DNA from: Spirochaetia bacterium
GTDB lineage: Bacteria; Spirochaetota; Spirochaetia; CADAEX01
Reading direction: 5' to 3'
Assembly: GCA_963662795.1 (NCBI GenBank)
Contig: OY759746.1
Span: forward strand, 2,208,001 to 2,272,000
DNA length: 64,000 nucleotides
Shown: piece by piece, positions 3,605 through 41,294 of the stretch
Layout: every line of letters begins with the position of its first letter
Position numbering within the stretch: position 1 is the stretch's first letter
The notes under the pieces: generated by a model
What the model saw: only the letters and a program-made list of their open reading frames with translations
What the model was told of the DNA's origin: nothing
The model's database searches: none
Made by a program: the position numbers and the translations under genes

Positions 3605-5112
3605 AAACTATAATCAATGGTAAATCAATACCGCTTTCAACAATTCCTGTAAGGGAGTTTGCTGATTTTTCAAACACAATAATCAGGAACGTCGCTGCCG
3701 GTAAACGTGTCAGCACCTATTTCGGTGTTCCGGGTGAAGACAGGAAACGAGTCGAAGTCTTTGTTATTCTGGCTGATGACAGCAGGAATCTGCTCGAAGT
3801 CGGACGTTCAGTCATCGAGGGGGATTCGTTCAACTCCATCACCCCCCGGTGTCCTCAGGTTCACCTGTTCGAACGGGAAATTTCTGAACAGTTCGGTCTG
3901 AAAGCACTGGGGCATCCCTGGTTCAAGCCTGTCCGTTATATTCATTCCTGGACAGAAAAGGATGCCTGGGACCGTCCTTCTGACGATGTAATACTTCCGG
4001 CTGTCGGGGATTTTTACCGGGTTGAAGGTGAACAGATTCATGAGGTTGCTGTCGGACCCGTGCATGCGGGTGTTATTGAGCCGGGTCATTTCAGGTTTCA
4101 GTGTTACGGTGAAGAAGTTTATCACCTGGAAATTGCACTGGGCTTTCAGCACAGGGGTGTTGAGAGAGCTCTGAAGGGCGGACCTGATCCGGGAACTCTG
4201 CACTATATTGAAACCCTGGCCGGCGATACTACCATAGGTCATACCATAAGCTATTCTCAGGTAGTGGAAGCTCTTTCCCGGACACAGATTACAGCCAGGG
4301 CTCAGGCATTAAGGGGTATTGCACTTGAACTTGAGAGGCTTGCCAACCATATCGGAGACCTCGGAGCACTTTCCGGAGATGTCGGTTACCTGCCTACTTC
4401 CAGTTTCTGTGGCCGTATCAGGGGCGAACTTCTGAATATGACGGCTGCTTTATGCGGAAACCGCTTCGGCAGGGGGATGACCCGCCCGGGCGGGGCAGGA
4501 TTTGATGCTGAATCTGAACGGATTACAGAACTACTGCAAAGACTTGATGTTAATGAAAAGGATTCCCGTGATGCGATAAATCTGCTCTGGGATAATCAGT
4601 CAGTCATGGCCAGATTTGAAGATACCGGACCCCTTTCCAGAGAAAAAGCCATCGAATTGGGAATTGTAGGTCCTCCGGCCCGTGCGACAGGACTCAACCG
4701 GGATGTCAGGTACACACAACCGTCAGGAATTTTCAGTTTTGTTCAGATTCCTGTATCGACATACGATTCCGGTGATGTATTTGCCCGTGCATACGTAAGG
4801 TGGCTGGAAATTCAGCAATCATTCGCTTTTATCCGTGATCAGCTTACCCGTCTTCCCTCTGGTCCTGTAATGACAGATGTTGGACAGCTTGCTCCGGACA
4901 GTCTGGCGGTATCCCTGATCGAAGGATGGCGGGGTGAAATTTGTCAGGTTGGAATTACAAATGGTGAGGGTTTGTTTGCCAGGTATAAGGTAACTGATCC
5001 CTCTTTCCATAACTGGATAGCCCTTGCCCAGGTATTAAGAAATCAGGAAATTTCAGACTTTCCCCTGTGCAACAAGAGTTTCAATCTGTCCTATTGCGGA
5101 CATGATCTGTAA
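3601..5112 (+). CDS. HyfG/HycE-like large subunit (NuoC+NuoD fold) lacking [NiFe]-binding CxxC motifs (Ehr large subunit)
   Basis: VGPVHAGVIEPGHFRF, LELERLANH, EGWRGEI, DPSFHNW; ETLAGDTTIGH stands in place of RxCGxC, and the C-terminus NKSFNLSYCGHDL in place of DPCxxC. Confidence 0.88.
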   Translation: MKTIINGKSIPLSTIPVREFADFSNTIIRNVAAGKRVSTYFGVPGEDRKRVEVFVILADDSRNLLEVGRSVIEGDSFNSITPRCPQVHLFEREISEQFGLKALGHPWFKPVRYIHSWTEKDAWDRPSDDVILPAVGDFYRVEGEQIHEVAVGPVHAGVIEPGHFRFQCYGEEVYHLEIALGFQHRGVERALKGGPDPGTLHYIETLAGDTTIGHTISYSQVVEALSRTQITARAQALRGIALELERLANHIGDLGALSGDVGYLPTSSFCGRIRGELLNMTAALCGNRFGRGMTRPGGAGFDAESERITELLQRLDVNEKDSRDAINLLWDNQSVMARFEDTGPLSREKAIELGIVGPPARATGLNRDVRYTQPSGIFSFVQIPVSTYDSGDVFARAYVRWLEIQQSFAFIRDQLTRLPSGPVMTDVGQLAPDSLAVSLIEGWRGEICQVGITNGEGLFARYKVTDPSFHNWIALAQVLRNQEISDFPLCNKSFNLSYCGHDL

Positions 5113-5127
5113 AATAAGGAATAAACT

Positions 5128-5901
5128 ATGTACAAAGAAATACTGACCAGGATAAAACAGGGGCACAGGACAATCAAATTTCCTCATGGAAATACACCTG
5201 TCCTTCCGGACCGTTACCGTGGGCTACCCCGTATATCAGCAGAAAAGTGCCCTGCACTATGCAGTAAATGTTCCGAAGCATGCAGTACCGGAGCTATCGA
5301 TCCGGAAACTAAAATCATTGATATGGGAAAATGTCTTTTTTGTACCGACTGCATACAGGCCTGTCCCGCGGCTGCAATCGAGTTTACCAGGGATTACCGA
5401 CTGTCTGTCAGGAAGAGGGTGGATTTGTTTGTTGGGCCGGATGAAGAAGAAATTGAACTTACCGGTGAGCTTGACAGAAAAATGAAAAATCTTTTCAGGC
5501 GGTCATTGAAATTGCGGGTGGTGAGCGCCGGAGGTTGTAATGCATGTGAAGCTGACGTGAATGTATTAAATACCATCGGCTGGGATCTCGGCCGCTTCGG
5601 GATCAGCTATGTTGCTTCTCCCAGACATGCAGACGGTATTATTGTTACAGGTCCTGTTACAAAGAATATGGAACTGGCTTTGAAAAAAACCTATGATGCC
5701 GTACCAGACCCGAAAATTGTTATAGCTGTCGGCGCCTGCGCAATTGCGGGAGGACCGTATGCAGGACACCCTGAGGTTTTAGGCGGTGCTGATGTCATGA
5801 TACCGGTAGATCTTTATATACCAGGATGTCCACCGCATCCACTTACAATTCTCGACGGTCTTCTGCGGCTTCTTGGAAGGATCAGAACGGAAAAGGGATG
5901 A
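5128..5901 (+). CDS. Fused 4Fe-4S ferredoxin + NuoB/HyfI-like small subunit (Ehr small subunit)
   Basis: CxxxCxxCxxxC and CLFCTDCIQACP clusters, then SAGGCNACE, SPRHAD, GACAIAGG, PGCPPHP. Confidence 0.88.
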   Translation: MYKEILTRIKQGHRTIKFPHGNTPVLPDRYRGLPRISAEKCPALCSKCSEACSTGAIDPETKIIDMGKCLFCTDCIQACPAAAIEFTRDYRLSVRKRVDLFVGPDEEEIELTGELDRKMKNLFRRSLKLRVVSAGGCNACEADVNVLNTIGWDLGRFGISYVASPRHADGIIVTGPVTKNMELALKKTYDAVPDPKIVIAVGACAIAGGPYAGHPEVLGGADVMIPVDLYIPGCPPHPLTILDGLLRLLGRIRTEKG

Positions 5902-5995
5902 TAAAAAAACTTCCCTGATGGAGTCTTTTTAGTCAAGGCGTGTTAGCCCTCTGCCCTTGCGGCTCCCACAAATTTAAACTTTCCAGGTCCGGACG

Positions 5996-6024
5996 CAAAA
6001 AAAAGACTCCCTTTCGGAAGTCTT
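5996..6024 (-). terminator. Probable intrinsic terminator of the tRNA operon
   Basis: Hairpin aagactcc-cttt-cggaagtctt preceded on + by an A-run (U-tract on -), just 3' of tRNA-Arg. Confidence 0.6.
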
Positions 6025-6026
6025 AT

Positions 6027-6100
6027 TACGTCCAAGAGGATTCGAACCTCTGACCCTCGCCTTAGAAGGGCGATGCTCTATCCAGCTGAGCTATGGACGC
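6027..6100 (-). tRNA. tRNA-Arg(TCT)
   Basis: Reverse complement GCGTCCATAGCTCAGCTGGATAGAGCATCGCCCT-TCT-AAGGCGAGGGTCAGAGGTTCGAATCCTCTTGGACGTA folds as a cloverleaf; CCA not encoded. Confidence 0.95.
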
Positions 6101-6105
6101 GCGAG

Positions 6106-6178
6106 TCGGGATAGAAGGACTCGAACCTTCGGTCTCCTGCTCCCAAAGCAGGCGCCTTAGCCACTAGGCTACATCCCG
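6106..6178 (-). tRNA. tRNA-Pro(TGG)
   Basis: Reverse complement CGGGATGTAGCCTAGTGGCTAAGGCGCCTGCTT-TGG-GAGCAGGAGACCGAAGGTTCGAGTCCTTCTATCCCGA folds as a cloverleaf. Confidence 0.95.
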
Positions 6179-6190
6179 AAAATCTGGTGA

Positions 6191-6219
6191 ATTATACTGT
6201 TATCACTTTACATGGTCAA
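6191..6219 (-). promoter_or_regulatory. sigma70 promoter for the tRNA-Pro/tRNA-Arg operon
   Basis: On the - strand, TTGACC-N17-TATAAT just upstream of tRNA-Pro. Confidence 0.75.
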
Positions 6220-6241
6220 GATATGGATGCTACTTTTAACC

Positions 6242-6880
6242 ATGAAACAAGCTGATATCAGGCGCTTGTCGGATGAAATATTCACCCTTCTGGATTCCAA
6301 TTATCCGGATACAATAGAGTTTCTCCGCTACCACAGCAGCTTCGAACTTTTAATCTCGGTTATCCTTTCAGCGCAGACTACAGACCGGCAGGTGATGGAA
6401 GTAACCCCTGCGCTTTTCGGCAGGTATCCCGGTCCCCAGGAGCTTTCAGAAGGCAGTCTGGATGATATAATGGACATAATCAGGTCTACTGGGTTTTATA
6501 AGGTCAAGGCACAGAATATCAAAAAGACTGCCAAAATGCTTGTTCAGGATTTCAAAAGCACAGTTCCGGATACAATTGAAAAACTAATCCTTTTGCCGGG
6601 TGTAGGGAGGAAAAGCGCCAATGTGATTTTAGGTGCTGTATTCGGAAAACCTGCTGTAATAGTTGATACCCATTTCGCCCGGGTTGTAAAAAGGCTCGGC
6701 CTGACTGAACAAAAAGATCCCGATAAAATTGAGTATGATATTGCCTTGCTTATTGCAAAAGAAAAACAGTACAGGTTTTCCATGACAGTAAATCTTCACG
6801 GCAGGGAAGTATGCCATGCCCGAAAGCCATTATGCGGCAGCTGTTTTTTAAGCCGCCTCTGCAGAAGCGCTGTTCTTTGA
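6242..6880 (+). CDS. nth: Endonuclease III
   Basis: ILSAQTTD, LPGVGRKSANV, VDTH, C-terminal CxxxxxxCxxCxxxxxC Fe-S motif; start chosen at MKQAD. Confidence 0.93.
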   Translation: MKQADIRRLSDEIFTLLDSNYPDTIEFLRYHSSFELLISVILSAQTTDRQVMEVTPALFGRYPGPQELSEGSLDDIMDIIRSTGFYKVKAQNIKKTAKMLVQDFKSTVPDTIEKLILLPGVGRKSANVILGAVFGKPAVIVDTHFARVVKRLGLTEQKDPDKIEYDIALLIAKEKQYRFSMTVNLHGREVCHARKPLCGSCFLSRLCRSAVL

Positions 6881-6905
6881 TATAAATAAGACTGATTTTA
6901 CACGT

Positions 6906-7349
6906 CTATTCAGAAAGTATTTTCTCCCATTCGTCATCAGAAACACCTGACTCAGAAAGGTGTCTGTTGAAATATTCAGAGCAGTTTTTAAGCCGCATGG
7001 CTGTATCAATTGAAATAGCGTGTTCAATTTCGCATGCCGAGCTGTCTGATTCTGCTTTTGAAAGCCTGAGGACAGATTGAAGAAAATCCCTTATAATATC
7101 GTGCTTTTTTCTTACTGTCGCAGCAATTTTTTTCCCCTTATCCGTAAGAGAAATAAAGGAATTTTTTTCATAGTTGACAAGACCCCGCTCTTTGAGGTTT
7201 TTAAGTGCGGATGTAACAGATGACATTTGAACATTAAGCTTGGCGGCAATATCCTTAACCCTGGCGACCCTGTTTTTTGATTCGAGAAAGAGAATGGCCT
7301 CGAGGTAGTCCTCAAGGCTTGTTGACAGTTTGGCCTTGTTGCTTGTCAT
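6906..7349 (-). CDS. DtxR/MntR family metal-dependent transcriptional regulator
   Basis: SLEDYLEAI, ARVKDIA, SSVTSALKNL, ACEIEHAIS. Confidence 0.9.
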   Translation of the reverse strand: MTSNKAKLSTSLEDYLEAILFLESKNRVARVKDIAAKLNVQMSSVTSALKNLKERGLVNYEKNSFISLTDKGKKIAATVRKKHDIIRDFLQSVLRLSKAESDSSACEIEHAISIDTAMRLKNCSEYFNRHLSESGVSDDEWEKILSE

Positions 7350-7533: not shown

Positions 7534-9216
7534 TTGAATTCAAAGGAAAATCACAACTTTGAAAGTTTTGAAGAACTTAAATTACACTACATTAACAATC
7601 TCCCTCTTGATATTGGAAATATTTCCGATAAATTCGAAGTTTTATCTTCTTCCGGGATAAATAAAATAAATGCTGCAGAGCTAAGGACTGATATTCATAA
7701 GCTGGCCGGATCAGCCGGCAGTTTCGGTTTTAAGGAAATAAGCACAATACTTAAAAGGATTGATCAGTATTTAACAAAATATATTGAGAATGAAATATCT
7801 GATAATGATTTTGATAAGCAGTATGTAAAAGAAACAATTCAGGAAGTAAGGGAAAAACTTTCAGGATCCAGAAATCCGTCTGTTGTAAGAAACCTTCATT
7901 CTGTTACAACGCTCCCTGTAACTCATGGAAGGGTATTTGAAAAAATACCTGCCACATGGGATAAAAATCTGATTATATGCAATCCTGAAAAACAGAATTA
8001 TCTTGAAGAACTGAGAGGTAAACTCTCATATTTCGGATATAAGGTCGAATATTTTACAGATAAAGATGAAGCTGTGAAGCGCATTGAAAATGAGTCTATT
8101 TATCTTGCGCTTGTTGATGTTGACTGTCTTCAGAAAAATCCTGAATTGGGTGCCAGACTTGTTAAAATAAAGGAAAAAAGGGAATGCACAAAGTTAATCT
8201 ATACATCAGCCCATAATGATTTTTTGACCCGTCTTTTCGCGCTCAAGAGCGGGGGAGATGCTTTTTTTGAAAGCCCGATAAATATTATAAAGCTTGTTGA
8301 TAAAATTGAATTTTTTGCAGACAGCCGCAGGATAAAACCTGATCACATTCTTATTATTGATGACGATATGGATACCCTTTCCTACTATGCGCATCTTTTC
8401 CAGGAGTACGGAATGATAACTTCGGTTACTTCTGACCCCTATTCTGCTTTTGATCTGATAATAGAGGCTTCGCCTGACCTGGTTTTTATTGATATGCTGA
8501 TGCCGGGGTGCAACGGACTGGAACTCGCCTCTGTAATAAGGCAGCATGAGGAGTTTGTTTCAACTCCTATCATTCTTTATTCTGCGTTTGATAAGCCTGA
8601 TTTTATTGATACAGGAGTCCCTTTTTCCGGAGATGAATTTATCAATAAATCTGTGAATGATGAAATACTTGTAAACATTGTTACAAACAGGATCTACAGG
8701 TCAAAAAATCTAAGACATTTCATGGAAAGGGATTCTCTTACCGGGCTGCTTAATCATACAAATCTGAATGACGGCTTCTACAGGGAGCTCCTGCGGGCTG
8801 ACCGTATGCAGCTTCCGTTAAGTTACGCAATGATAGACCTTGATAATTTTAAATCTGTTAACGATAAATACGGACATCTTGTCGGAGACACAATACTAAA
8901 AAGTCTTGCGTATATGCTGATTGAAAGACTCAGAACTACTGATATTATTGGCCGTTACGGCGGGGAAGAGTTTGTTGTAATTCTTAATAACACTTCCGTG
9001 GAAAATGCAAAAAAAGTTCTGGATGGAATAAGGGTAAATTTTTCTAAAATATCTCACAGCACGAAAGACGAGCAGTTTAGTGTGACTTTCAGCTGCGGTA
9101 TAGCAGGCTATCCTGATTTTTCTCTTGCAGAAACTATCTCCGAAGCGGCAGATAAAGCCCTTTATACGGCTAAGAATCAGGGAAAGAACCGGGTTGTTAT
9201 CTATGGGGACAGTTAA
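7534..9216 (+). CDS. Response-regulated diguanylate cyclase (Hpt-REC-REC-GGDEF)
   Basis: IHKLAGSAGSFG (Hpt), IDDD...FIDMLMP (REC), DSLTGLLN, RTTD I-site and GRYGGEEF active site. Confidence 0.9.
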   Translation: MNSKENHNFESFEELKLHYINNLPLDIGNISDKFEVLSSSGINKINAAELRTDIHKLAGSAGSFGFKEISTILKRIDQYLTKYIENEISDNDFDKQYVKETIQEVREKLSGSRNPSVVRNLHSVTTLPVTHGRVFEKIPATWDKNLIICNPEKQNYLEELRGKLSYFGYKVEYFTDKDEAVKRIENESIYLALVDVDCLQKNPELGARLVKIKEKRECTKLIYTSAHNDFLTRLFALKSGGDAFFESPINIIKLVDKIEFFADSRRIKPDHILIIDDDMDTLSYYAHLFQEYGMITSVTSDPYSAFDLIIEASPDLVFIDMLMPGCNGLELASVIRQHEEFVSTPIILYSAFDKPDFIDTGVPFSGDEFINKSVNDEILVNIVTNRIYRSKNLRHFMERDSLTGLLNHTNLNDGFYRELLRADRMQLPLSYAMIDLDNFKSVNDKYGHLVGDTILKSLAYMLIERLRTTDIIGRYGGEEFVVILNNTSVENAKKVLDGIRVNFSKISHSTKDEQFSVTFSCGIAGYPDFSLAETISEAADKALYTAKNQGKNRVVIYGDS

Positions 9217-10972
9217 GGCCGTTTCAGCAGCATTGTTAATTTTTTTTAGTGTTTATCTTCTCTCCTGTGAGACTAACGAAGGTTATTTTTACGGGAAAAT
9301 CAAAAACAACGGTAAATACGAAAAAACAGTATTGCGGTTTGAAAAAAGCAGTGATAAAAAAACAGGGTATTATAGATTTAAAAAACCATACATTATCGAA
9401 AACAGCGGTCAGCCGGTGTTCTTCAAATCTGAAATACCTGAAGTAAATGGATCGTTTTTTTTTACTATACATACAGCATCTCCCTCCTCCCCCGATACCC
9501 GGACAGAATCTATACATAGCATTGAATTTTCGTCAGAAGGGCCTTCAAAAGCAGTTCTTTTTTTTAGTATGCAGGGGCCTTCATCTATCAAAGGTTTTTC
9601 TATAACTGAATTAACCGAAGAAAGCGAATCAGCTGGATATCAGAGCGGGAAAAAAACAAAAGAGGAAAACAGGGATATTTCCGGGTCTTCAGGTCCAATT
9701 GAGGTGAGGATAATAGCAGGTACTGAATACAGGGAAGGATTTTTAAGGGAAAATGGATTTATTTATCAGAGTGAAAATTTTCACAGGATAACTGAAGACG
9801 GGGAAGAAGTTTTTTCTTTTAATTCCGGAAACGGAAACGGAATTAAAAGTCTTGATAAAATTAAGATAAGAGTGGAAAACGGACCTTTATACAGTCATGA
9901 TGAAAATATATTGCTGGTGAATTTTTATTCCAAAGGTATTAAAAAAAGTGTTAAGGCCCTTCCGGTGAGGGATGAAATAAATTTTACTCCGGCGGATTTA
10001 AAAACAATATTTCCTGCGCTGCCGGATGAGTTAAGGTTTTCTGTTACTTCTTTAAATGGAGCTTCCAGCCCTGTGGTAAAGGGTGTTTCAGTTTTTCGCA
10101 GTTCAGAAAACCAGACTCATTCTGATTATTCGGCGATAAAAGCTGATTTTAATTCCATGCTTGATTACAGTATTGAAAAATGGAGAACCGCAAACTATGA
10201 ACTGTTTTCCTGGTCGGTTTTTCCTGAATTTCTTCTTATTGATACAATAGACTACAGATTCCAGAATGCAATGTTCAAGAGGCTTGCCTTTTTTGTGGAA
10301 AAGCCTGGTGCTGCGGGAAAGCTTCTTACAGACAGTGAGATGGAAAAACTGCATGGATGGAATGCCCATGATTACAGGGCCGAGGACCTTTGCAGGTTTT
10401 TTAATCTGGCGGAGGAAACAGGTTTTAACCTCTCTGAAGAAGAGGAAATACTTAAAATGCTGCTCCTTGAAAACAAAATAATCCGGAATGATCAGGGCGG
10501 CAAGGAATATCTTCCTTCAGGGGGCGGTATTCTGTCTATTTCAAGGGAATCAAACCCTTTTCTGCGGAAAGTATTTATTTCCCATGAGGGATATCACGGT
10601 GTCTTTTTTTCATCAAAGGAATTCAGGGAAAAGTGCGGATTGATATGGAACAAAACTCCGGAAGATGTAAAAACTTTCTGGAAATTTTTCCTTGCCCATA
10701 AGCATTATGATATTTCAAACAGTTACCTTGTTATTAATGAATTCATGGCCTACAACCTTCAGCAGACGCCGGATAAGGGTAGAGATTATTTTTTTGAATA
10801 TATAATTCCCGCCCTCTATGATAATTATCCCTCACGGAAAGATTTTCTGGATAATATCAATGAAAATTACCGGGAAGAATTTTATGAAATAAGCACTGAC
10901 ATTGCAGCAGCCCTGTATGAAACAACAGGCCTTCCGCCCGGCAAGCTTCTCTTTATTGAAAACAGTCCCTGA
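9203..10972 (+). CDS. Hypothetical lipoprotein with HExxH motif
   Basis: Signal peptide ending YLLSC; C-terminal half contains HGWNAHDY and SHEGYHG...NEFMAY; overlaps the cyclase stop codon. Confidence 0.6.
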   Translation: MGTVKAVSAALLIFFSVYLLSCETNEGYFYGKIKNNGKYEKTVLRFEKSSDKKTGYYRFKKPYIIENSGQPVFFKSEIPEVNGSFFFTIHTASPSSPDTRTESIHSIEFSSEGPSKAVLFFSMQGPSSIKGFSITELTEESESAGYQSGKKTKEENRDISGSSGPIEVRIIAGTEYREGFLRENGFIYQSENFHRITEDGEEVFSFNSGNGNGIKSLDKIKIRVENGPLYSHDENILLVNFYSKGIKKSVKALPVRDEINFTPADLKTIFPALPDELRFSVTSLNGASSPVVKGVSVFRSSENQTHSDYSAIKADFNSMLDYSIEKWRTANYELFSWSVFPEFLLIDTIDYRFQNAMFKRLAFFVEKPGAAGKLLTDSEMEKLHGWNAHDYRAEDLCRFFNLAEETGFNLSEEEEILKMLLLENKIIRNDQGGKEYLPSGGGILSISRESNPFLRKVFISHEGYHGVFFSSKEFREKCGLIWNKTPEDVKTFWKFFLAHKHYDISNSYLVINEFMAYNLQQTPDKGRDYFFEYIIPALYDNYPSRKDFLDNINENYREEFYEISTDIAAALYETTGLPPGKLLFIENSP

Positions 10973-11119: not shown

Positions 11120-12490
11120 TCACAATTTATTCTCAACCTCTGTAATTGCCTCTTCTATTGCATTGAGCGCAAAATCCATCTCTTTTTTTGTTATAACAAG
11201 AGACGGGGTCAGCGTAAGGATATTCCCCATAGTAAGCTTGAAGCTGACTCCTTTCGACAGAGCCCTGTACATAACCTCTTCCGCCTCTTCCGATGCAATC
11301 TCCCGTGTTTCCCTGTTCTTTACCAGCTCAATCCCGATAAAAAGGCCTATTCCTCTTACAGCTCCTATCAGCGGATGCCGCTCCATCATCTCATTCGCTT
11401 TTTTAAGTGAATACTCCCCCAGGATTCTTGAATGCTCTACAAGCTTGTTTTTTTCAATGTAGTTAATGGCTGCAAGCCCTGCCGCAGCTCCAAGAGTGCT
11501 TTTTTCGTGTGTGAAGTGTCCGAGCGCGATATGGCCTGCCACATCAAGCCTTTCGTCTGCTATAACAGCCGCGATTGGAAATACTCCGCCGCCGAGTCCT
11601 TTCCCGATGACAAGAATATCCGGGGTAACATCAAAATTCTGGCATGTAAACCACTGGCCCGTTCTTCCAAGAGCGTGAGGAATTTCATCGAAAATGAGGA
11701 GGGCCCCGTATTTGTCACAGGCTTTTCTGACAATCTGCCAGTATTCTTTCGAAGGGACATAAGGTGTGCTTCTCATCGGTTCTGAAATAACTGCAGCGAT
11801 ATCACCCTCTTTTTCAAGAATATACTCGATATACTTTGCCCAGAGTATCTCCCACTCTTCAGGTTTTCCTATGTCCATGAACCGTCTGTGAATATCAGGC
11901 GGGGGAACGTGTTCTGTTCCGCTTGACAGGGGGCCGATCCCTTTTCTGAAAACTGCCTCACCCCCGATAGAAATTGTATCGAGCGTCGCGCCGTGAAAAG
12001 AATCCCACATTGAAATTGTCTTATATCTTCCTGTTGCTATACGGGCAAGCTTAATCGCGATTGAGTTTGCTTCCGCGCCTCCGGGGGCAAAAAGCATTTT
12101 ATTGAGGTTTCCCGGGGTGAGGGATGCAATTTTTTTGGCGAATTCTATCACAATTTTGTTTGTATACCGCCGTGTACAAAAGGGAAGTTCATCCAGTTGT
12201 TTTTTTACTGCATCAATAACGTCCTGATTTCCGAAACCGACCTGATGTACATTGTTGCCGTGGAAATCAAGATATTTTCTCCCTTCATAGTCTTCTATCC
12301 AGGCGCCTTTTGCTGATGCAAGGACATTAAGGCATGGGGATGAGAGCGATTGTTTTAAAAAATATCTGCTGTCCTCCTCAAGTATTTCCGCGGTTTCTTT
12401 TCCTATATTTTCATCCTGCCACTGCTTTCTTTTTTCCGAGATATTAATATCACCTTCCAGCTTAAGCTGGCTGCTCATTTTTTCCGGCAT
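11120..12490 (-). CDS. pbfA: Class-III PLP enzyme, PbfA-like ((R)-1-hydroxy-2-aminoethylphosphonate ammonia-lyase family)
   Basis: EGDINIS...W, QSLSSPCL, DFHGNNVHQVGFG, LPFCTRRYTN, WDSFHGATLDTISIGGEA, GKGLGGG (PLP Lys), GHFTHEKS: the motif set I recognise from PbfA-type proteins. Confidence 0.7.
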   Translation of the reverse strand: MPEKMSSQLKLEGDINISEKRKQWQDENIGKETAEILEEDSRYFLKQSLSSPCLNVLASAKGAWIEDYEGRKYLDFHGNNVHQVGFGNQDVIDAVKKQLDELPFCTRRYTNKIVIEFAKKIASLTPGNLNKMLFAPGGAEANSIAIKLARIATGRYKTISMWDSFHGATLDTISIGGEAVFRKGIGPLSSGTEHVPPPDIHRRFMDIGKPEEWEILWAKYIEYILEKEGDIAAVISEPMRSTPYVPSKEYWQIVRKACDKYGALLIFDEIPHALGRTGQWFTCQNFDVTPDILVIGKGLGGGVFPIAAVIADERLDVAGHIALGHFTHEKSTLGAAAGLAAINYIEKNKLVEHSRILGEYSLKKANEMMERHPLIGAVRGIGLFIGIELVKNRETREIASEEAEEVMYRALSKGVSFKLTMGNILTLTPSLVITKKEMDFALNAIEEAITEVENKL

Positions 12491-12640
12491 GGGCCCTCCT
12501 TATTCAATTATTTTCAAAATATAGCTGAGAGACACAATTGTGTCAACAAATGTATATACAAATATAGTTAGAGTTGATATGAAAATATGCATTTTTTATA
12601 AAAAAATGATTATAATCATATTATATAATATTAAGATTTG

Positions 12641-12710
12641 TTATCATAATAAAATATGATAATTAATATAATATAAATTTATTGACAATAAAACAAACTG
12701 CCCTGATAAT
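12641..12710 (+). promoter_or_regulatory. LysR-type operator plus sigma70 promoter upstream of the first TAXI gene
   Basis: TTATCATA-ATAAAA-TATGATAA palindrome (contains T-N11-A); TTGACA(12682)-N17-GATAAT begins 21 nt after the 18-bp core. Confidence 0.75.
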
Positions 12711-12779
12711 TTATTATGTTGATCAATAAACAGTAAATATATGCCAAAAAGAATGACTAATTATTTAGGGAGGAGTTTA

Positions 12780-13772
12780 ATGAAAAAGATAATTTTATTG
12801 GGGCTGATCCTTATTGTTGCACCGTGCCTGGTTTTTTCCGGCGGTGCAGGTGAGCAAGGGTATTCGGCAATTATGGGAAGCTCAAGTCTTGGAGGAACAT
12901 GGTATCCGACAGCGGCAAGAATGGCAGGCGCCGCGATGGAACATGGTGGCATAATAATAACTGTCCAGTCATCCGGCGGCGGAACAGAAAATGTAAGACT
13001 TATGAGGCAGGACCAGTATCAGATGGGACTTTGTGAACCAAATATTGCCAACTACGCATATAAAGGTGTTAAATTATTCAAGGATGACGGGCCATATGAC
13101 AATCTTACATTTGTTACAAACCTTTACCCAAATGCGGCCTGCGCGGTTGTTCACAAGGGCGGCCCGATAAAAACAATGTATGATTATAACATGGACAGCA
13201 ATGGTGGAAAAAAATACGGATTTGCTCCGGGAAGTCCGGGATCAGGTGATGAATACTGCTGGGAAGAGATTTTCAGCATCTATGGCGCAAACAAAACAAA
13301 CATGAACTGGAAGCCCCTTTCCCACAATGAAAGAGTTATGGCTTTCAAGGACAGAATTCTTGAAGGAATAGGTTATACGACAGCACAGCCTTCAGGGAGT
13401 ATAATTGAAGCATCAGCACAGACTCCAATCAGAATTTTGGAGATAACGGGAAAAGACAGGGAAAAAATAATCAAAGAATTCCCCTGGTATTCTCCGGCGG
13501 TAATCCCTGCAGGCATGTATAATGGCATTGATGCTGATGTGGAAACAATTTCAATCGGCGGATTTGTTCTTGCCAACAAGGATGTTCCAGAGGATTTTAT
13601 TTACAGATATCTTTCCGCTGTTTACGGCAAAGGACTTAAAAGTGTTCAGGGTGTGGCAGAAGCAACAAAAGATATAAAACTTGAAAATTCCATTAATGGC
13701 AATGAGACTGCTTCGATGGCATTTCATGCCGGTGCTGAAAAATTTTACAGGGAAAAAGGTCTCCTGAAATAG
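12780..13772 (+). CDS. TAXI-family TRAP solute-binding protein (copy 1)
   Basis: Signal peptide, GSSSLGGTWYP, SSGGGTENVRL, NLYPN, PGSPGSG, FHAGAEKFYREKG; AGGAG RBS. Confidence 0.88.
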   Translation: MKKIILLGLILIVAPCLVFSGGAGEQGYSAIMGSSSLGGTWYPTAARMAGAAMEHGGIIITVQSSGGGTENVRLMRQDQYQMGLCEPNIANYAYKGVKLFKDDGPYDNLTFVTNLYPNAACAVVHKGGPIKTMYDYNMDSNGGKKYGFAPGSPGSGDEYCWEEIFSIYGANKTNMNWKPLSHNERVMAFKDRILEGIGYTTAQPSGSIIEASAQTPIRILEITGKDREKIIKEFPWYSPAVIPAGMYNGIDADVETISIGGFVLANKDVPEDFIYRYLSAVYGKGLKSVQGVAEATKDIKLENSINGNETASMAFHAGAEKFYREKGLLK

Positions 13773-13798
13773 AAATTATTAAGCTGATCGCCTTTTAA

Positions 13799-13832
13799 GC
13801 GGGGTATTTAAACAGATATCCCGCATTTTTTC
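13799..13832 (+). terminator. Intrinsic terminator after TAXI copy 1
   Basis: gcggggtattt-aaac-agatatcccgc followed by a T-run. Confidence 0.7.
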
Positions 13833-13943
13833 CCTCTGATAATACTGAAAATTATCAGTGCATTAATTTAATCTCTCTATTTTACTTTCTGTAATTCGTG
13901 AATATTATTAATTCCAGCCGTAAAAATAGAAACCAAAAAACAG

Positions 13944-13972
13944 TTGACAAAAGATTGAATCAGAGTGATAAT
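13944..13972 (+). promoter_or_regulatory. sigma70 promoter for TAXI copy 2
   Basis: TTGACA-N17-GATAAT; no copy of the ATCATA-N6-TATGAT box upstream. Confidence 0.65.
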
Positions 13973-14022
13973 TTTCCTAACAGTAAATTAACTAAATTTT
14001 AACACTAATAAAGGAGAGAAGT

Positions 14023-15021
14023 ATGAAGAGAATTTTAATTTTTCTACTAATTGCCTTCCTGTTTACCAGTTTTGCATTTGCAGCTGGACAGGGAGAAGCT
14101 GGTGGAAAAAAATACTCAGCAATCATGGGAAGTTCAAGCCTTGGTGGATCATGGTATCCTATGGCTAGTAGACTTGCCGGTGTAGCAATGAAGTACGGCG
14201 ATATAGTAATAACTGTACAGTCCTCAGGCGGCGGTACAGAGAACGTAAGACTTATGAAACAGGGTCAGTATAACATGGGTCTCTGCGAACCAAACGCAGC
14301 CAACTATGCTTATCAGGGAATTAAAATGTTTGCCAAAGAAGGCAAATTTGATAACCTCAGATATGTTATGGGCCTTTATCCGCTTCCTTTGACAGCAGTT
14401 GTTCATAAAGACGGTCCTATTACAAGCCTTGGTGATTTTGATAAGGCAAAAACAGGTAAAAGCTACGGTTTTTCACCTGGAAGCCCGGGATCAGGCGATG
14501 AAGTCAGCTGGCTTGAAGTTTTCGAAGCTTACGGCGTTAAAAAAGATGACATGAACTGGAAACCACTTTCACATAATGAAAGAGTAATGGCTTTCAAAGA
14601 CAGAATTCTTGAATGCGTAGCTTTTGAAACAGCTCAGCCTGCAGGTGCTATAATCGAACTTTCAGCTCAGAACCCGATCAGAATTATTGAAATCAAGGGC
14701 GCAGAAAGAGACAAGATTCTCAAAGCTCTTCCTTTCTATGGTAAATATACACTTCCTGCTGGAATGTATAACGGTCAGGATACAGCAGTTGAAACAATCT
14801 TCCTTGGCGGATTTTGTCTTGCCAATGCAGATGTTCCAGAAGATTTTATCTACAAATATCTGACAGCAATTTATGGACCTGGTCTTTCCGAAGTACAGAG
14901 TGTATTCCCGGTAGCAAAAGAAATTACCCTGAAAACAGCTATTCTTGGAAATGAGAACGGAGAAATCCCTTTCCACCCAGGTGCTCTTAAATTCTACAAG
15001 GAAAAAGGTCTTCTTAAATAA
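14023..15021 (+). CDS. TAXI-family TRAP solute-binding protein (copy 2, paralog of copy 1)
   Basis: Shares YSAIMGSSSLGG, SSGGGTENVRLM, MNWKPLSHNERVMAFKDRILE with copy 1; FAAGQGE signal peptide. Confidence 0.88.
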   Translation: MKRILIFLLIAFLFTSFAFAAGQGEAGGKKYSAIMGSSSLGGSWYPMASRLAGVAMKYGDIVITVQSSGGGTENVRLMKQGQYNMGLCEPNAANYAYQGIKMFAKEGKFDNLRYVMGLYPLPLTAVVHKDGPITSLGDFDKAKTGKSYGFSPGSPGSGDEVSWLEVFEAYGVKKDDMNWKPLSHNERVMAFKDRILECVAFETAQPAGAIIELSAQNPIRIIEIKGAERDKILKALPFYGKYTLPAGMYNGQDTAVETIFLGGFCLANADVPEDFIYKYLTAIYGPGLSEVQSVFPVAKEITLKTAILGNENGEIPFHPGALKFYKEKGLLK

Positions 15022-15049
15022 TTCTAATATATAGAGTTAGAGAAAGATT

Positions 15050-15080
15050 AAAAGCCATACCGCAAGGTATGGCTTTTTTT
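15050..15080 (+). terminator. Intrinsic terminator after TAXI copy 2
   Basis: aaaagccatacc-gcaa-ggtatggctttt hairpin with T-tract. Confidence 0.8.
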
Positions 15081-15267
15081 ATGGTCTGCACGGTATAGCC
15101 GGTAATTCCGGCAGACCCGGCAGTACTGCTGCTGATGACAGATCAGATGTTTTATCCGGACAGGTATATCTATTACGGGATAATAAAGATAATTGTTTTG
15201 CCCGAAAAGTTACTAAAAAAAATTTGTATTGTATTATTCAGCTTTATTAAATATAGTATTTAAAGTA

Positions 15268-16188
15268 ATGAACCTATATCATTTAAAGACTTTTTTTTAT
15301 ACTGCCAAATACAGGAGCTTCACAAAAGCGGCTGATGTACTTTGTATTACCCAGCCGGCTGTAACGAGACAGATTCAGGAGCTTCAGTCTACTCATAACC
15401 TTGTTTTGTTTAACAGGATAGGGAAAAAAATCCTTCTCACCGATGCCGGTGAGGCGTTGTACTCTCTGGCTGAGAAAATATTCGAGCTTGAAACACAGGT
15501 TGAAGAAAGCATCCGGGATTTTCAGCAGCAGAAAAGCGGTAAAATAAGTATTGTGACGTCCGAAACTTTCGGCGGTTTTTATCTTCCTAAGATTATAATA
15601 AAGTTTAACCAGAAATATCCTGATATATATGTTTCTGCAATGACTCTTAATGATTTTTATGTTGTTGATTATGTTTCAAGACTTACCTATGATTTCGGTT
15701 TTTTATCGAAAGAGATGTCTCACCCTAAAATTATTGTAAAAGAACTGTTTGAGGAAGACATTGTCATGATAATCAACCCGGAACATCCTCTTGCAGGAAA
15801 AAGCATTATTGAACCTCACGAACTGGATAATATCCCGATGATAATGCCTGAGCAGGACAGCGGTACCCGCAATATTCTTAACGAATTCAAAAAAAGACAT
15901 GATCTGAAATTTAATGTTGTATGTGAGTTTTCAAACAACGATTCAATAAAAACCCTTGTTCAGGAAGGAATGGGCGTTTCCCTTATCTCAAGAAATGTTG
16001 TAAAGAATGAGATAAAGAGGGGAGAACTTGCATCTCTTAATATAAATGATAAAGGTTTAACGAGAAAATATTATATCACTTATCATAAGGAAAAATACTT
16101 TACAAAGACGATAGCTGAATTTATCGCAATAACATATCAGTGGTCTAATGAGTATATGAATGAATACGGCCGCGGTCCGGTATTATAA
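15268..16188 (+). CDS. LysR family transcriptional regulator
   Basis: MNLYHLKTF...SFTKAADVLCITQPAVTRQIQELQ...LFNR...LTDAG helix-turn-helix. Confidence 0.93.
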   Translation: MNLYHLKTFFYTAKYRSFTKAADVLCITQPAVTRQIQELQSTHNLVLFNRIGKKILLTDAGEALYSLAEKIFELETQVEESIRDFQQQKSGKISIVTSETFGGFYLPKIIIKFNQKYPDIYVSAMTLNDFYVVDYVSRLTYDFGFLSKEMSHPKIIVKELFEEDIVMIINPEHPLAGKSIIEPHELDNIPMIMPEQDSGTRNILNEFKKRHDLKFNVVCEFSNNDSIKTLVQEGMGVSLISRNVVKNEIKRGELASLNINDKGLTRKYYITYHKEKYFTKTIAEFIAITYQWSNEYMNEYGRGPVL

Positions 16189-16231
16189 AATTACCCTGCA
16201 TCGATTATACTTCTTAATATAATATCCACAA

Positions 16232-16299
16232 ATCATAATAAAATATGATAATAATTATAATTAATAATTATTGACAAAGCTCACTCCAAAAAAGATAAT
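16232..16299 (+). promoter_or_regulatory. Second copy of the LysR-type operator plus sigma70 promoter
   Basis: ATCATAATAAAATATGAT (identical to 12643-12660), 21-nt spacer, TTGACA(16271)-N17-GATAAT. Confidence 0.75.
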
Positions 16300-16364
16300 A
16301 TATTTAAGATTATTAATCTTTATAATAAGTATAATTAAATATTATACAACAAGGAGATGAAAAC

Positions 16365-17561
16365 GTGGCTAAAAAATTATTTGCTCTTGCGGGAGCCGGA
16401 AAAATCTGCGGCTGGGCACTTAGAACTGCGGTAAAAAATTCAGACAAAAATCTTTTTGACAGGATTACAATCGGTGAGTACAACCTTGAAGCTGCAAATG
16501 CGCTTAAGGCTGAGCTTGATGATCCAAGAGTTGATGTCGTAAAAATCGATATCAATGACGAGGCCGATGCAATAAATAAAATGAAGGGGTATGATGTTGT
16601 TCTCGACGGTTCAACAATCAAATTGAACGGTATTTCAACAAGGATTATTGCGCAGGCCGGATGCAGCGGTTTAAATCTTAACGGTTTCGGTGAAGAATAT
16701 AAATACAGCGATATTTTTAAAAAAAACGGCAGGATTCATATTCCCGGTTACGGGATGACACCCGGGCTTACAGATTCGATGGTGAGGGCAGGTGCTGAAA
16801 AACTTGATAAAATTGATACAGTAAGAGTAAGCCACTGTGCGTTCAGGCCTATCGCGTATTCTCCTGCTATTTTTGAAACAACTTCATACGAGTATGATCC
16901 GAACCTTCCAGGCAGGGTTGTTTATGAAGACGGAGAACTTAAGCAGGTTCCCCCGTTTGCACGGGAAAGGCTGATTCCTACCCCTCTTCCATACGGGACA
17001 AATCCTCAGTACATAATCCCCCACTCGGAGGTGCATACTGCAACAGAATATCTTAAAAAAATCGGGAAACCGCCCAGGCTTGTAGAGGTAAGGGGAACCT
17101 GGCCGCAGAAAAACATGAGACTTATTAAAGCTCTTTATGAATGGGGCATAATGAAAAACGAAAAATTCACCTATAACGGTTCAGAAATGAAGATTATGGA
17201 TGTTATCGGCGCTTATCTTCAGCAGAAGGAAGATGGAAAAGTGACAGATCTTTACGGATACTGCCTCTATATCCAGCTGCTTGGAGAAAAGAACGGCAGG
17301 AAGATTGAACAGGTCCTTTATCATACACACCCGAAATCAGATGGTTCGGTTAAAGGCTGGGAAGGGCTTACCGCCTATATCAGGAATGTTGGTTCTCCGA
17401 TGGGTGTCGCTGCTCTGCTTATTGCCCAGGGTAAATCAGCAGGAACAGGTTGTGTAATTCCTGAAGAAGCATTTGATCCCGCGGATGTTTTTGCGGCGCT
17501 TGAGCCGATCGGGATCCGGATTCACCAGTCTGAAAGGGAAATTGCTGATTATAATTATTGA
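16365..17561 (+). CDS. Saccharopine dehydrogenase / lysine 6-dehydrogenase family NAD(P)-dependent oxidoreductase
   Basis: N-terminal Rossmann motif LAGAGKIC, GYGMTPGLT, IIPHSEVHT, PEEAFDP; GTG start after AAGGAG. Confidence 0.75.
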   Translation: MAKKLFALAGAGKICGWALRTAVKNSDKNLFDRITIGEYNLEAANALKAELDDPRVDVVKIDINDEADAINKMKGYDVVLDGSTIKLNGISTRIIAQAGCSGLNLNGFGEEYKYSDIFKKNGRIHIPGYGMTPGLTDSMVRAGAEKLDKIDTVRVSHCAFRPIAYSPAIFETTSYEYDPNLPGRVVYEDGELKQVPPFARERLIPTPLPYGTNPQYIIPHSEVHTATEYLKKIGKPPRLVEVRGTWPQKNMRLIKALYEWGIMKNEKFTYNGSEMKIMDVIGAYLQQKEDGKVTDLYGYCLYIQLLGEKNGRKIEQVLYHTHPKSDGSVKGWEGLTAYIRNVGSPMGVAALLIAQGKSAGTGCVIPEEAFDPADVFAALEPIGIRIHQSEREIADYNY

Positions 17562-19544: not shown

Positions 19545-20354
19545 TCAAAAATTAATTTTTAATCCGTCCCAGGCAGGTCTCACATGTAAAGGAAGCTCTT
19601 TTTCCAGGGTTTCATGATCTATATTATGGCACATGTGAGTGAGATAAGCTTCTCTGCATCCTGTTTTTTCTATCATTTCAAGCGCCTGGTCAACTGAAAA
19701 GTGGGTGGGGTGCGGCTTGTATCTCAGGGCATCAATTATAAGTATTTCAACTCCTTCAAGTGCCTCAAACGATTCAGGCGGTATATAGCTGCAGTCGGTG
19801 AGATATGCGAGACTTCCTGCCCTGTATCCCAGGATATTATCTTTTCCGTGTTTGATTTTTACCGGTTTTATAATGATCTTATTTTCAGTATTTGTATTGC
19901 AGGCCTGTCCCGGATTGCCATCTGCGGGTCCTGCCTGTACAGTTAATTCTTCATCTTTTATTTCCTTGAATGCCAGTCTTGGTTTACCCCCACCGCTGCC
20001 TGCATCAGCGTTAATATAGCTGAAGCGCTTTTTTACATCGTTTATTGTTTCCGCATTTCCGTAAACAGGTATGGGGTTGTATCTGGAAAGGGGGCGGAGG
20101 TCATCAATTCCATGTATGTGGTCCGCGTGAGAATGAGTGAGGAAAACACAATCCACCTTATTTATTCCTTCCCTCACAGCCTGTAGTCTGAATTCTGTTG
20201 CTGTATCGATCAGAATGGAAGCTGTTCCTGATTCTATCCATACAGAAGCCCTTGTCCGCTTGTTTTTTTGATTCCCTGATTTACATACTGCACAGGCGCA
20301 GCCGATTACCGGAATGCCATGGGATGTTCCTGTCCCCAGAAATGTTAAACGCAT
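19545..20354 (-). CDS. MBL-fold metallo-hydrolase (PhnP/YycJ-like phosphodiesterase)
   Basis: FLGTGTSHGIPVIGCxCxVC, THSHADHIHGIDDLR, YLTD, HPTH, THMCH. Confidence 0.88.
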   Translation of the reverse strand: MRLTFLGTGTSHGIPVIGCACAVCKSGNQKNKRTRASVWIESGTASILIDTATEFRLQAVREGINKVDCVFLTHSHADHIHGIDDLRPLSRYNPIPVYGNAETINDVKKRFSYINADAGSGGGKPRLAFKEIKDEELTVQAGPADGNPGQACNTNTENKIIIKPVKIKHGKDNILGYRAGSLAYLTDCSYIPPESFEALEGVEILIIDALRYKPHPTHFSVDQALEMIEKTGCREAYLTHMCHNIDHETLEKELPLHVRPAWDGLKINF

Positions 20355-37118: not shown

Positions 37119-37179
37119 CTCCGCACTTGAGCGGTATCGGAACGGCAGCGCGGAAAAAGCGGAGGTTTTGTCTGTGGAA

Positions 37180-40060: not shown

Positions 40061-40175
40061 TTATAATATTACCTCAAAAAATAAATAAAAATATTAATGC
40101 TAAATATATTTATACATTAGAAAATAAAAAAGTAAACTGGTTTTTTTATAAAATGTTAATTTATTAAAAAAAAAT

Positions 40176-40223: not shown

Positions 40224-40243
40224 GGTTTTTTAGGAGGTATTAG

Positions 40244-41203: not shown

Positions 41204-41232
41204 GAGGAAAGAATAGTTTCTTCACTAAAATT

Positions 41233-41279: not shown

Positions 41280-41294
41280 AAAAGGGTAGGTAAA

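Follow-up and report, generated by a model that had tools for sequence, protein, structure and literature searches.

A five-gene module in the genome of a Spirochaetia bacterium (GenBank assembly GCA_963662795.1, contig OY759746.1) may be a LysR-controlled system for the uptake and deamination of hydroxy- and aminoethylphosphonate-type compounds, a reading to which we give a probability of roughly 0.5. The module lies at positions 11120 to 17561 of a 64,000-nucleotide (nt) stretch (the window, C1:2208001-2272000 of the single-contig, 3.93-Mb genome) and consists of a gene for a PbfA-family lyase (pbfA), divergent from two genes for TAXI-family TRAP solute-binding proteins (TAXI-1 and TAXI-2), which are followed by a gene for a LysR-type regulator (lysR) and one for an NAD(P)-binding enzyme of the saccharopine/carboxyspermidine-dehydrogenase fold (here SDH-like). 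This arrangement had been described in an earlier reading of the sequence alone (the sequence-only reading) and is borne out by family scans and by an open reading frame (ORF) check of the window, in which all five ORFs fell exactly at the positions given beforehand. The observations that carry the argument are the gene families themselves, their recurrent linkage across phyla, a 21-nt element shared within the module, and the fold of SDH-like. The best homologues carry the names Spirochaetia or Spirochaetaceae.

The pbfA product (11120..12490, minus strand; 456 amino acids [aa]), a class-III pyridoxal phosphate (PLP) enzyme whose start codon is preceded at 6 nt by AAGGAGG, scored 676 bits against the NCBIfam PbfA model NF049939 (cut-off 525) and 255.7 bits against Pfam Aminotran_3; the next unrelated model, PRK08360, has a cut-off of 608, against which the protein reached 316.5 bits. 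The sequence includes the class-III lysine context VIGKGLGGG. In a FastTree phylogeny of 33 class-III proteins, which was built without the characterised Vibrio splendidus protein, the window enzyme grouped in a clade of 21 rows (SH-like support, 100%) that also holds a PbfA from Pontibacillus salipaludis (L038; L numbers denote loci compared here). This Pontibacillus protein comes from a phnS2-phnT2-phnU2-phnX-pbfA-phnW operon, the genes of which all score over their cut-offs except PhnX, placed by tblastn alone. The five other full-length class-III genes of the genome lie outside the clade. The assignment to PbfA made in the sequence-only reading is thus supported by both score and phylogeny, with the identity of the substrate resting on homology. 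Also upheld is the absence of the usual partners, as whole-genome family searches placed no match to PhnX, PhnW, PhnA or PhnY within C1:2208001-2272000; the genes that the earlier reading had wished to see located lie at 0.71 Mb (PhnX-like) and 1.78 Mb (PhnW-like).

SDH-like (16365..17561, plus strand; 398 aa) begins with a GAGKICG motif and matches Pfam Sacchrp_dh_C (PF16653, 45.9 bits; cut-off 31) and Sacchrp_dh_NADP (PF03435, 34.2 bits; cut-off 25.1), both just over the gathering scores, with no match among the NCBIfam models. A single search returned 995 homologues, the identity between members from Spirochaetia, Bacillaceae, Clostridia and Syntrophales being about 55%, and an alignment of 26 sequences had a mean column identity of 66% with many invariant His, Arg and Glu residues. 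Using an AlphaFold (AF2) model with a pLDDT of 92.2, the top Foldseek matches were carboxyspermidine dehydrogenases (8deb, 8h4z/8h52 and 4ina; TM 0.79-0.80, 16-18% identity), followed by an unassigned Streptococcus protein, the Pyrococcus L-lysine dehydrogenase 3abi (TM 0.71), saccharopine reductases and homospermidine synthases. A profile search likewise gave 8deb at E 9e-14, and 3abi at E 1.5e-3 over N-terminal positions 1-143 alone. SDH-like thus represents a distinct family within a superfamily whose known members all perform NAD(P)-dependent imine chemistry between aldehydes and amines.

Several closer identities for SDH-like were considered and dropped. A close relationship to a solved protein was set aside, as the single-sequence search of solved proteins gave only 4rl6 at E 1.8e-4. 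Orthology to carboxyspermidine dehydrogenase is not borne out, given the 16-18% identity and the phosphonate/amine catabolic neighbours, nor is identity with L-lysine 6-dehydrogenase, given the lack of full-length likeness. PbfF and PbfG have different folds, with neither pfam02826 nor pf00107 found in SDH-like. The analogy with lysine 6-dehydrogenase drawn in the sequence-only reading proved weaker than that with carboxyspermidine dehydrogenase (TM 0.71 and E 1.5e-3 versus TM 0.80 and E 9e-14).

Regulation of the module was approached through its noncoding DNA. A 21-nt element, ATCATAATAAAATATGATAAT, containing the dyad ATCATA-N6-TATGAT, is found between pbfA and TAXI-1 (12643..12663, plus strand) as a candidate operator and, with 21 of 21 positions identical, between lysR and SDH-like (16232..16252, plus strand). 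A scan of both strands found exactly these two copies in the 3.93-Mb genome at 0, 1 or 2 mismatches. Both copies end 18 nt ahead of a -35 hexamer TTGACA (at 12682 and 16271), and about 80 nt surrounding them can be aligned. These hexamers belong to promoter-like sites of the form TTGACA-17-GATAAT upstream of TAXI-1 (12682..12710, plus strand) and SDH-like (16271..16299, plus strand); a third such site precedes TAXI-2 (13944..13972, plus strand), where the genome scan placed no copy of the element, and pbfA has TTGACA-17-TATATT (12518..12546, minus strand; a pattern match only), each scoring 11/12 in the consensus scan. The shared element at the same 18-nt spacing points to, although it does not prove, common control of pbfA/TAXI-1 and SDH-like as one regulon, most simply by the LysR protein encoded between the two copies. 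Terminator-like hairpins with T-runs follow TAXI-1 (13799..13824, plus strand; 11-bp stem) and TAXI-2 (15050..15077, plus strand; 12-bp stem, bidirectional). A second, different dyad, CTGATAAT-N7-ATTATCAG, lies at 13836-13858, past the TAXI-1 terminator and upstream of TAXI-2.

The LysR-type regulator itself (15229..16188, plus strand; 319 aa) has HTH_1 and LysR_substrate domains (Pfam), and its true start is more likely 15268 than 15229, because family models align from residue 14 on. Its best models were all under cut-off (LysR_Sec_metab, 216.8 versus 250 bits; phn_lysR TIGR03339, 185.9 versus 341.1 bits), and LysR genes adjoining SDH-like in other loci scored 184-217 bits with TIGR03339. 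The window LysR is 30-46% identical to the LysR genes that stand beside SDH-like in 29 of 80 metagenome loci.

The link of the dehydrogenase to aminophosphonate catabolism, suggested in the sequence-only reading, was pursued in a census of SDH-like neighbourhoods and is strengthened by it, as it is by the 21-nt element shared with the pbfA/TAXI-1 region. Loci were gathered from species genomes (46) and from 80 of 335 matching metagenome contigs, with markers sought by tblastn with marker proteins in the flank present, up to 10 kb. The count base was the 123 loci with at least half of the SDH-like gene (L063-L065 excluded, leaving 43 of the 46 genome loci), and the figures are sums of the genome and metagenome rows. 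PbfA was counted at 40% identity or more, which excluded L041 (29%) and the class-III aminotransferases of L140-type loci (32-35%); the family scan of metagenome loci excluded the high-GC loci L113 and L126. On this basis, a PhnX-type gene was found in 26 of the 123 loci, a PhnW-type gene in 23, PbfA in 20, and a PhnS2/U2-type ABC transporter in 47; at least one of the three enzymes was present in 48 and an enzyme or the ABC transporter in 68, leaving 55 loci, many on short contigs, with no marker. When restricted to the non-spirochaete loci whose flanks both exceeded 5 kb (36 in all), the counts were 16 (PhnX), 14 (PhnW), 7 (PbfA) and 23 (ABC transporter), with at least one enzyme in 22 and an enzyme or transporter in 27. 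These neighbourhood rates have no matched background; as a control, PhnX-type matches at E<=1e-15 occurred in 0 of 14 control genomes, compared with 7 of 10 SDH-bearing genomes tested (nine without such a gene near SDH-like, plus that of L051).

The arrangements behind these counts differ between phyla. Bacillaceae and Paenibacillaceae have phnS2-T2-U2-phnX-(pbfA)-phnW-SDH-deoR, and Clostridia have deoR, SDH-like and a histidine kinase gene together with genes for a PgtP-like MFS transporter, a hydantoinase-A-like protein, a HAD protein, and PhnX-like and PhnW-like enzymes. Three types recur in metagenomes. The first joins lysR-SDH to a PhnS2/U2/T2-like ABC transporter, frequently accompanied by PbfA and in one case (L102) by a PhnA-like gene; the binding proteins of these LysR-type clusters are PhnS2-like at 148-167 bits (cut-off 392.75). 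The second combines lysR with genes for a PhnX-like hydrolase, a PRK06062-type and a HemL-like aminotransferase, an ABC transporter and SDH-like (L140 and four others), and the PhnX-like protein of these five loci is 70-72% identical to that of the genome studied here. The third has two non-pyrrolysine MtmB homologues, a corrinoid protein, lysR, SDH-like and an ABC transporter (L129 and others). In 11 non-spirochaete metagenome loci, a PbfA 49-67% identical to that of the window adjoins SDH-like. Together, these data support a tie between the SDH-like family and aminophosphonate clusters in several phyla, as judged from gene neighbourhoods; the family spans Bacillota, Spirochaetota, Thermodesulfobacteriota, Acidobacteriota and Pseudomonadota.

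Among 401 Spirochaetota genomes sampled, six (including this one) carry SDH-like. The gene order of the window is retained in close relatives (L021-L023), in L025 and L026 the TAXI-TAXI-LysR-SDH part can be followed as far as the contig ends, and L024, L089 and L100 have the order cls-SDH-TAXI(-)-pbfA(+) without lysR. Because the last three keep all of SDH-like, TAXI and PbfA in another order, this linkage outlives rearrangement. In an IQ-TREE phylogeny of 76 sequences (thinned at 92% identity from 126; L066, 26% identical, stands apart on a very long branch), the window SDH-like and nine others formed a clade with 100% SH-aLRT support, nested among LysR-type clusters next to the PbfA-ABC-LysR loci L101 and L102.

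The two binding proteins provide a further connection. TAXI-1 (12741..13772, plus strand; 343 aa) and TAXI-2 (14023..15021, plus strand; 332 aa) scored 193.6 and 215.6 bits, respectively, against TIGR02122 TRAP_TAXI (cut-off 84.35), with TAXI-1 also reaching 211 bits against Pfam NMT1_3, and they are 62-64% identical to each other. The true start of TAXI-1 is more likely 12780 than 12741, since GGAGGAG precedes that ATG. Both proteins share 40-45% identity with the TAXI proteins of three other loci of the genome, namely the phnW-like, pbfG/phnX-like and SbnB-like loci (40-42% for TAXI-1), and at most 30% with all its other TAXI paralogues. The earlier suggestion that TAXI proteins are linked to phosphonates thus gains from TAXI-linked, phosphonate-type loci elsewhere in the genome. 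No permease gene is adjacent to the window pair; the genome has nine fused TRAP permease matches over cut-off, none inside the window. Four permeases form a subfamily (50-75% identity) that matches the TAXI subfamily, two of them being tandem copies at the phnW-like locus that are 75% identical. Given five binding proteins to four permeases in the matched subfamilies, the extra tandem permease at the phnW-like locus is a reasonable partner, and the best candidate, for the window TAXI proteins. Contigs from RNA libraries of four studies cover 13987-15057 (TAXI-2) at about 95-97% likeness, and one digester RNA run also contains pieces of pbfA, lysR and SDH-like, whereas TAXI-1 and portions of the other genes were left uncovered, to which no meaning attaches; DNA carry-over is possible in each case, and such contigs carry neither strand nor expression level.

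Phosphonate-type genes found elsewhere in the genome encode PhnW-like, PbfG-like, PhnX-like, PhnA-like and PepM proteins, and three of these genes adjoin paralogous TAXI-TRAP systems. At C1:~706-712 kb, a PbfG-type Zn-dehydrogenase (TIGR03366, 333.8 bits; cut-off 328.1), a fused TRAP permease and a TAXI protein are encoded with a PhnX-like hydrolase (C1:711926-712669; TIGR03351, 160.6 versus 218.9 bits; TIGR01422, 111 versus 220 bits). Residues D14, K54 and R167 of the hydrolase are invariant in an alignment with PhnX of Bacillaceae operons; we take these to be the nucleophile, the Schiff-base Lys of the cap domain, and the phosphonatase-typical Arg found where HAD proteins have Lys. At C1:~1.779 Mb, a gene for a PhnW-AepZ aminotransferase (404.7 bits; cut-off 360.8) is divergent from a TAXI gene and the two fused permease genes, with a GntR gene nearby. 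A PhnA-like gene at 694 kb reached 171.8 bits (cut-off 407.55), and PhnY had no match over cut-off in the whole genome. The PhnA-like gene is 44% identical to that of the PbfA-SDH-ABC cluster L102 and lies at C1:~693200-698900 (L167 6238-11941) between two xylose-isomerase-like TIM-barrel genes, near a distant TAXI gene and a two-component system.

We propose that TAXI-1 and TAXI-2 would bind one or more substrates of the 1-hydroxy-2-aminoethylphosphonate (HAEP) type outside the cell and deliver them to a fused TRAP permease encoded elsewhere. PbfA would then take ammonia off (R)-HAEP to give phosphonoacetaldehyde (PAA), which the PhnX-like hydrolase (0.71 Mb) would split into phosphate and acetaldehyde, with the PhnA-like enzyme as a possible alternative. 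SDH-like, under shared regulation, would serve in an ancillary role as an NAD(P)-dependent C-N oxidoreductase and would most likely cleave an N-substituted (e.g., N-alkylated) relative of 2-aminoethylphosphonate (AEP) or HAEP in what we infer to be the oxidative direction; the released primary amine could pass to PbfA or PhnW, or PAA directly to the hydrolase. An N-substituted substrate is preferred over AEP because the nearest structures form secondary amines, because SDH-like always has a consumer of primary amines in PhnW, PbfA, EutBC or a class-III aminotransferase, because the binding proteins of LysR-type clusters resemble AEP binders yet are clearly different, and because the methyltransferase (MtmB/corrinoid) contexts suggest that N-methylated amines are involved. 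We put the chance that phosphonates are what the module handles at rather better than even. The specific N-substituted-amine reaction of SDH-like is a tentative assignment that we would sooner expect to fail than to hold. A broader formulation fares slightly better while staying short of even odds, namely that this SDH-fold family would be a new phosphonate breakdown factor. It would supply aminophosphonate catabolism with its first C-N oxidoreductase to depend on NAD(P) and not on O2, its substrates being AEP itself or AEP/HAEP-type compounds that are methylated or otherwise N-substituted, and would work here with the first phosphonate TAXI-TRAP uptake under a dedicated LysR operator.

A number of points weigh against this proposal. 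We know of no SDH-like family member for which an activity has been measured and of no natural N-substituted HAEP, and the TAXI proteins characterised to date, to our knowledge, bind carboxylates. Neither the PhnX-like nor the PhnA-like gene reaches its curated cut-off, and the census counts overstate independence, many loci being kin and a few metagenome contigs duplicating those of metagenome-assembled genomes (e.g., L090 and L026). The identity of the two 21-nt copies could stem from the copying of a promoter segment and not from selection on an operator; the element is less conserved in relatives: at 3 mismatches or fewer, only degenerate copies occur in L021-L034, all upstream of SDH-like in L021-L023, with none in the pbfA/TAXI intergenic regions, where AT-rich local alignments were weak. 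Furthermore, a long stem (1.12 changes per site) leads to the spirochaete SDH clade, which would allow for a shift in function.

Relatives are the chief source of evidence against reading the module purely in terms of phosphonates. In five rumen Spirochaetia genomes of the same family, a TAXI gene (56% identity) and SDH-like (71%) lie directly ahead of eutA-eutB-eutC and a gene for an acetylating acetaldehyde dehydrogenase (eutE); none of the five has a PhnX-type gene (best match, 39 bits), and three have a PbfA 81% identical to that of the window, after ilvB/ilvN-like genes. The sequence-only reading named the lack of a PAA-consuming enzyme as a point that would refute it; this genome has candidates for such an enzyme in its PhnX-like and PhnA-like genes, and the five close relatives have none. 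Four of the five do have a PhnW-AepZ-like gene beside a TAXI-TRAP system. Two remoter spirochaete SDH homologues (40-45% identity) adjoin non-pyrrolysine MtmB homologues and a corrinoid protein. The only characterised non-pyrrolysine member of the MtmB class demethylates tetramethylammonium and choline (PMC13044021). Such neighbours of SDH-like lie at 7539-11055 of L084 and 348-5628 of L086 (both Spirochaetota) and at 3478-7075 of the metagenome locus L129, and a possible function of these neighbourhoods is an anaerobic route for N-methylated amines or aminophosphonates.

These contexts, along with the long stem of the clade and the two and a half PbfA-like paralogues of the genome, which hint at diversified substrates, favor a spirochaete module unconnected with phosphonates, whose substrate could be an amine derived from ethanolamine or choline, a carboxylate analogue (isoserine, for instance) or another small beta-substituted ethylamine, and whose products would enter acetaldehyde or central metabolism. 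We nevertheless consider this improbable, given that the window PbfA exceeds its curated cut-off, that the PbfA and SDH-like families are repeatedly linked to PhnX, PhnW, PhnA-like and PhnS2T2U2-like genes, that the closest TAXI paralogues reside in the phnW-like and pbfG/phnX-like loci, and that the PhnX-like protein has the signature residues of PhnX.

Alternatively, SDH-like may be an O2-independent, deaminating AEP dehydrogenase that converts AEP to PAA and ammonia directly, in the manner of lysine 6-dehydrogenase and in place of PhnW. The fold family does include L-lysine dehydrogenase (3abi), LysR-type clusters of PbfA, SDH-like and an ABC transporter have no PhnW in the flank present, L051 is a PhnX-MFS-SDH locus with no PhnW within 10 kb, and demethylation in the MtmB/corrinoid contexts could supply AEP. 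However, SDH-like adjoins PhnW in 23 of the 123 loci, and a PhnW-like gene is present both in this genome, over its cut-off, and in all five further SDH-bearing genomes tested, that of L051 included (214-298 bits, none over the TIGR02326 cut-off), so that an AEP dehydrogenase would be redundant in most genomes. In addition, the nearest structures are carboxyspermidine dehydrogenases, which form secondary amines, and the rumen relatives are without a PAA hydrolase. The substitution of the dehydrogenase for PhnW or PbfB, PbfC and PbfD envisaged in the sequence-only reading is thus not sustained, and we regard a direct AEP dehydrogenase as having a low probability.

Other roles for SDH-like appear far less probable than these. 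As an alanine or glutamate dehydrogenase yielding a 2-oxo acid and ammonia, it could regenerate the amino acceptor of a cluster aminotransferase, much as alanine dehydrogenase is found beside taurine:pyruvate aminotransferase. This role would fit the presence of SDH-like beside PhnW in operons of Bacillota and, in L140-type clusters, beside class-III and HemL-like aminotransferases. It would also fit the ornithine-cyclodeaminase/archaeal-alanine-dehydrogenase-type gene of a paralogous TAXI-TRAP cluster in this genome and in a rumen relative, where a PhnW-like aminotransferase is present too. Such a role would, however, leave the links to PbfA (a lyase that needs no acceptor), EutBC and MtmB-like systems unexplained, the window module has no aminotransferase, and we know of no alpha-amino-acid dehydrogenase in the saccharopine/carboxyspermidine-dehydrogenase fold family; we give it very little credence.

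Equally slight are the prospects of a non-homologous PbfF analogue, that is, an NAD-dependent racemase turning S-HAEP into R-HAEP for PbfA. PbfA adjoins SDH-like in 20 of the 123 loci, and PbfA is reported to take only R-HAEP and to be accompanied in Alphaproteobacteria by the NAD-dependent racemase PbfF of pfam02826 (PMC12366243). Against this, 103 of the 123 SDH-like loci have no PbfA in the flank present, whereas pbfF, in the table of that paper, always occurs with pbfA. The known chemistry of the fold family is also directed at C-N and not C-OH bonds. Finally, SDH-like has its own promoter-like site, adjoins a cardiolipin synthase gene and occurs in eight Clostridia loci with DeoR only (no phosphonate gene within 10 kb), as well as in the 55 marker-free loci, but its being a mere neighbour with an unrelated housekeeping role in, e.g., polyamine or lysine metabolism is hard to credit in view of the unique shared 21-nt element, the linkage to PbfA and TAXI that survives rearrangement, the recurrence of phosphonate genes beside it in several phyla, and an identity of only 16-18% to carboxyspermidine dehydrogenases.

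Further features of the genome touch on the same chemistry. A second PbfA-family gene (C1:160888-162213; NF049939, 633 bits; 47% identity to the window PbfA) closes a cluster at C1:~154000-162300 (L080 4049-12232) that encodes a histidine kinase, a response regulator, a TAXI protein, a fused TRAP permease, a 126-aa ORF and an M20 ArgE/DapE-type deacylase, the last of which suggests an N-acylated amino compound as substrate. A third PbfA-like sequence (C1:1815147-1816107) lies in three out-of-frame pieces and is probably a decayed copy. At C1:~3752600-3757700 (L081 6636-11695), and in a rumen genome (L078 6709-13009), genes for a TAXI protein, a PRK07475 racemase-like protein, a fused TRAP permease and an SbnB/ornithine-cyclodeaminase/archaeal-AlaDH-type dehydrogenase form a conserved cluster that is, by its gene content, another amine-handling TAXI-TRAP module; the rumen cluster additionally holds a PhnW-AepZ-like aminotransferase gene. 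A PEP mutase (PepM) match of 405 bits (cut-off 319.55), plus two below cut-off (318.7 and 292.8 bits), indicates that the organism probably synthesises phosphonates as well, and part of the uptake genes could serve phosphonate salvage. The PEP mutase matches lie at C1:588367-589215, 1470102-1470959 and 2493146-2493958.

Within the window, the module is flanked by genes for a GGDEF response regulator, a 615-aa ORF without family, a cardiolipin synthase, an MBL-fold hydrolase and a RecQ-family helicase, none with an obvious relation to it. The 615-aa ORF (9125-10972), which is convergent with pbfA, has a signal-peptide-like start and no Pfam or NCBIfam match, and it also adjoins pbfA in four related genomes (42-84% identity). 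The MBL-fold gene (19545-20354) was considered as PhnP and dropped, at 96.8 bits against a cut-off of 272.25. At 37099-38520, a class-III aminotransferase gene follows a NUDIX gene and groups with the PRK06062-type aminotransferases of L140-type PhnX-like/ABC/SDH clusters, and a separate uptake/catabolic cluster occupies 39227-45790, where the genes for TctC-TctB-TctA, a short-chain dehydrogenase and a thiamine-diphosphate enzyme run divergently from a DeoR gene. A monomeric [FeFe] hydrogenase is also encoded in the window.

Aminophosphonates make up a sizeable pool of organic phosphorus, and each recently described helper enzyme (PbfA, PbfC/D, PbfF and PbfG) has added to the known range of compounds recycled by bacteria. 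The family of SDH-like is large, has no described function and recurs in phosphonate clusters of anaerobes and Bacillota, and the dehydrogenase is accordingly a good candidate for an enzyme still missing from the recycling of phosphonates. Cleavage of C-N bonds with NAD(P), if true, would explain how strict anaerobes handle the substrates of FAD/O2-dependent enzymes, and the locus further suggests that TAXI-TRAP systems carry phosphonates. The view in the sequence-only reading that this combination was undescribed agrees with our search of openly accessible full-text literature (subscription journals lay outside it), in which no paper linked the SDH-like family to phosphonates and only the PbfC paper concerned an AEP dehydrogenase. 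In that literature, as far as searched, TAXI-TRAP and phosphonates met in incidental mentions only, with no report of phosphonate transport, and a term search of the PbfA and PbfB-D papers (PMC8154272 and PMC10590968) returned no mention of a saccharopine-dehydrogenase-type enzyme.

In sum, we read the module as a previously undescribed form of the hydrolytic aminophosphonate pathway. This AEP/HAEP pathway relies on PhnW-PhnX (or PhnY-PhnA), to which PbfA is added as an ancillary lyase (Zangelmi et al. 2021, PMC8154272). The genome shares with it a PbfA over cut-off, PhnW-like, PhnX-like and PhnA-like genes, and the principle that ancillary enzymes funnel AEP relatives to PAA; it differs in that pbfA lies 0.44 Mb from the phnW-like and 1.5 Mb from the phnX-like gene, in having TAXI-type uptake genes instead of ABC or MFS transporters, in its spirochaete host, and in the extra SDH-fold enzyme of the regulon. 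PbfC and PbfD, described as FAD-dependent oxidoreductases of N-methyl-AEP and AEP (pfam01266) with O2 or dyes as acceptors (PMC10590968), are recurrent ancillary C-N oxidoreductases of AEP clusters that broaden the substrate range, which is the role proposed for SDH-like; their FAD fold, however, is unrelated to the Rossmann NAD(P) enzyme with a saccharopine/carboxyspermidine-dehydrogenase fold. The NAD-dependent HAEP racemase PbfF (pfam02826; PMC12366243) and the Zn-dependent dehydrogenase PbfG (pf00107), which oxidises 2-hydroxyethylphosphonate to PAA (PMC13576164), are likewise nicotinamide-dependent helpers found through phosphonate-cluster context, and a PbfG-like gene is present in this genome as well, beside the PhnX-like gene and TAXI-TRAP genes; neither Pfam domain occurs in SDH-like. 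Compared with L-lysine 6-dehydrogenase (3abi), which oxidatively deaminates a terminal primary amine, SDH-like is of the same superfamily but a weaker match, confined in profile to the N-terminal 143 positions. Carboxyspermidine and carboxynorspermidine dehydrogenases (8deb, 8h4z/8h52 and 4ina) are its best structural and profile match and share NAD(P)-dependent aldehyde-amine chemistry through an imine, whereas SDH-like forms a separate conserved family whose context is phosphonate/amine catabolism rather than polyamine synthesis.

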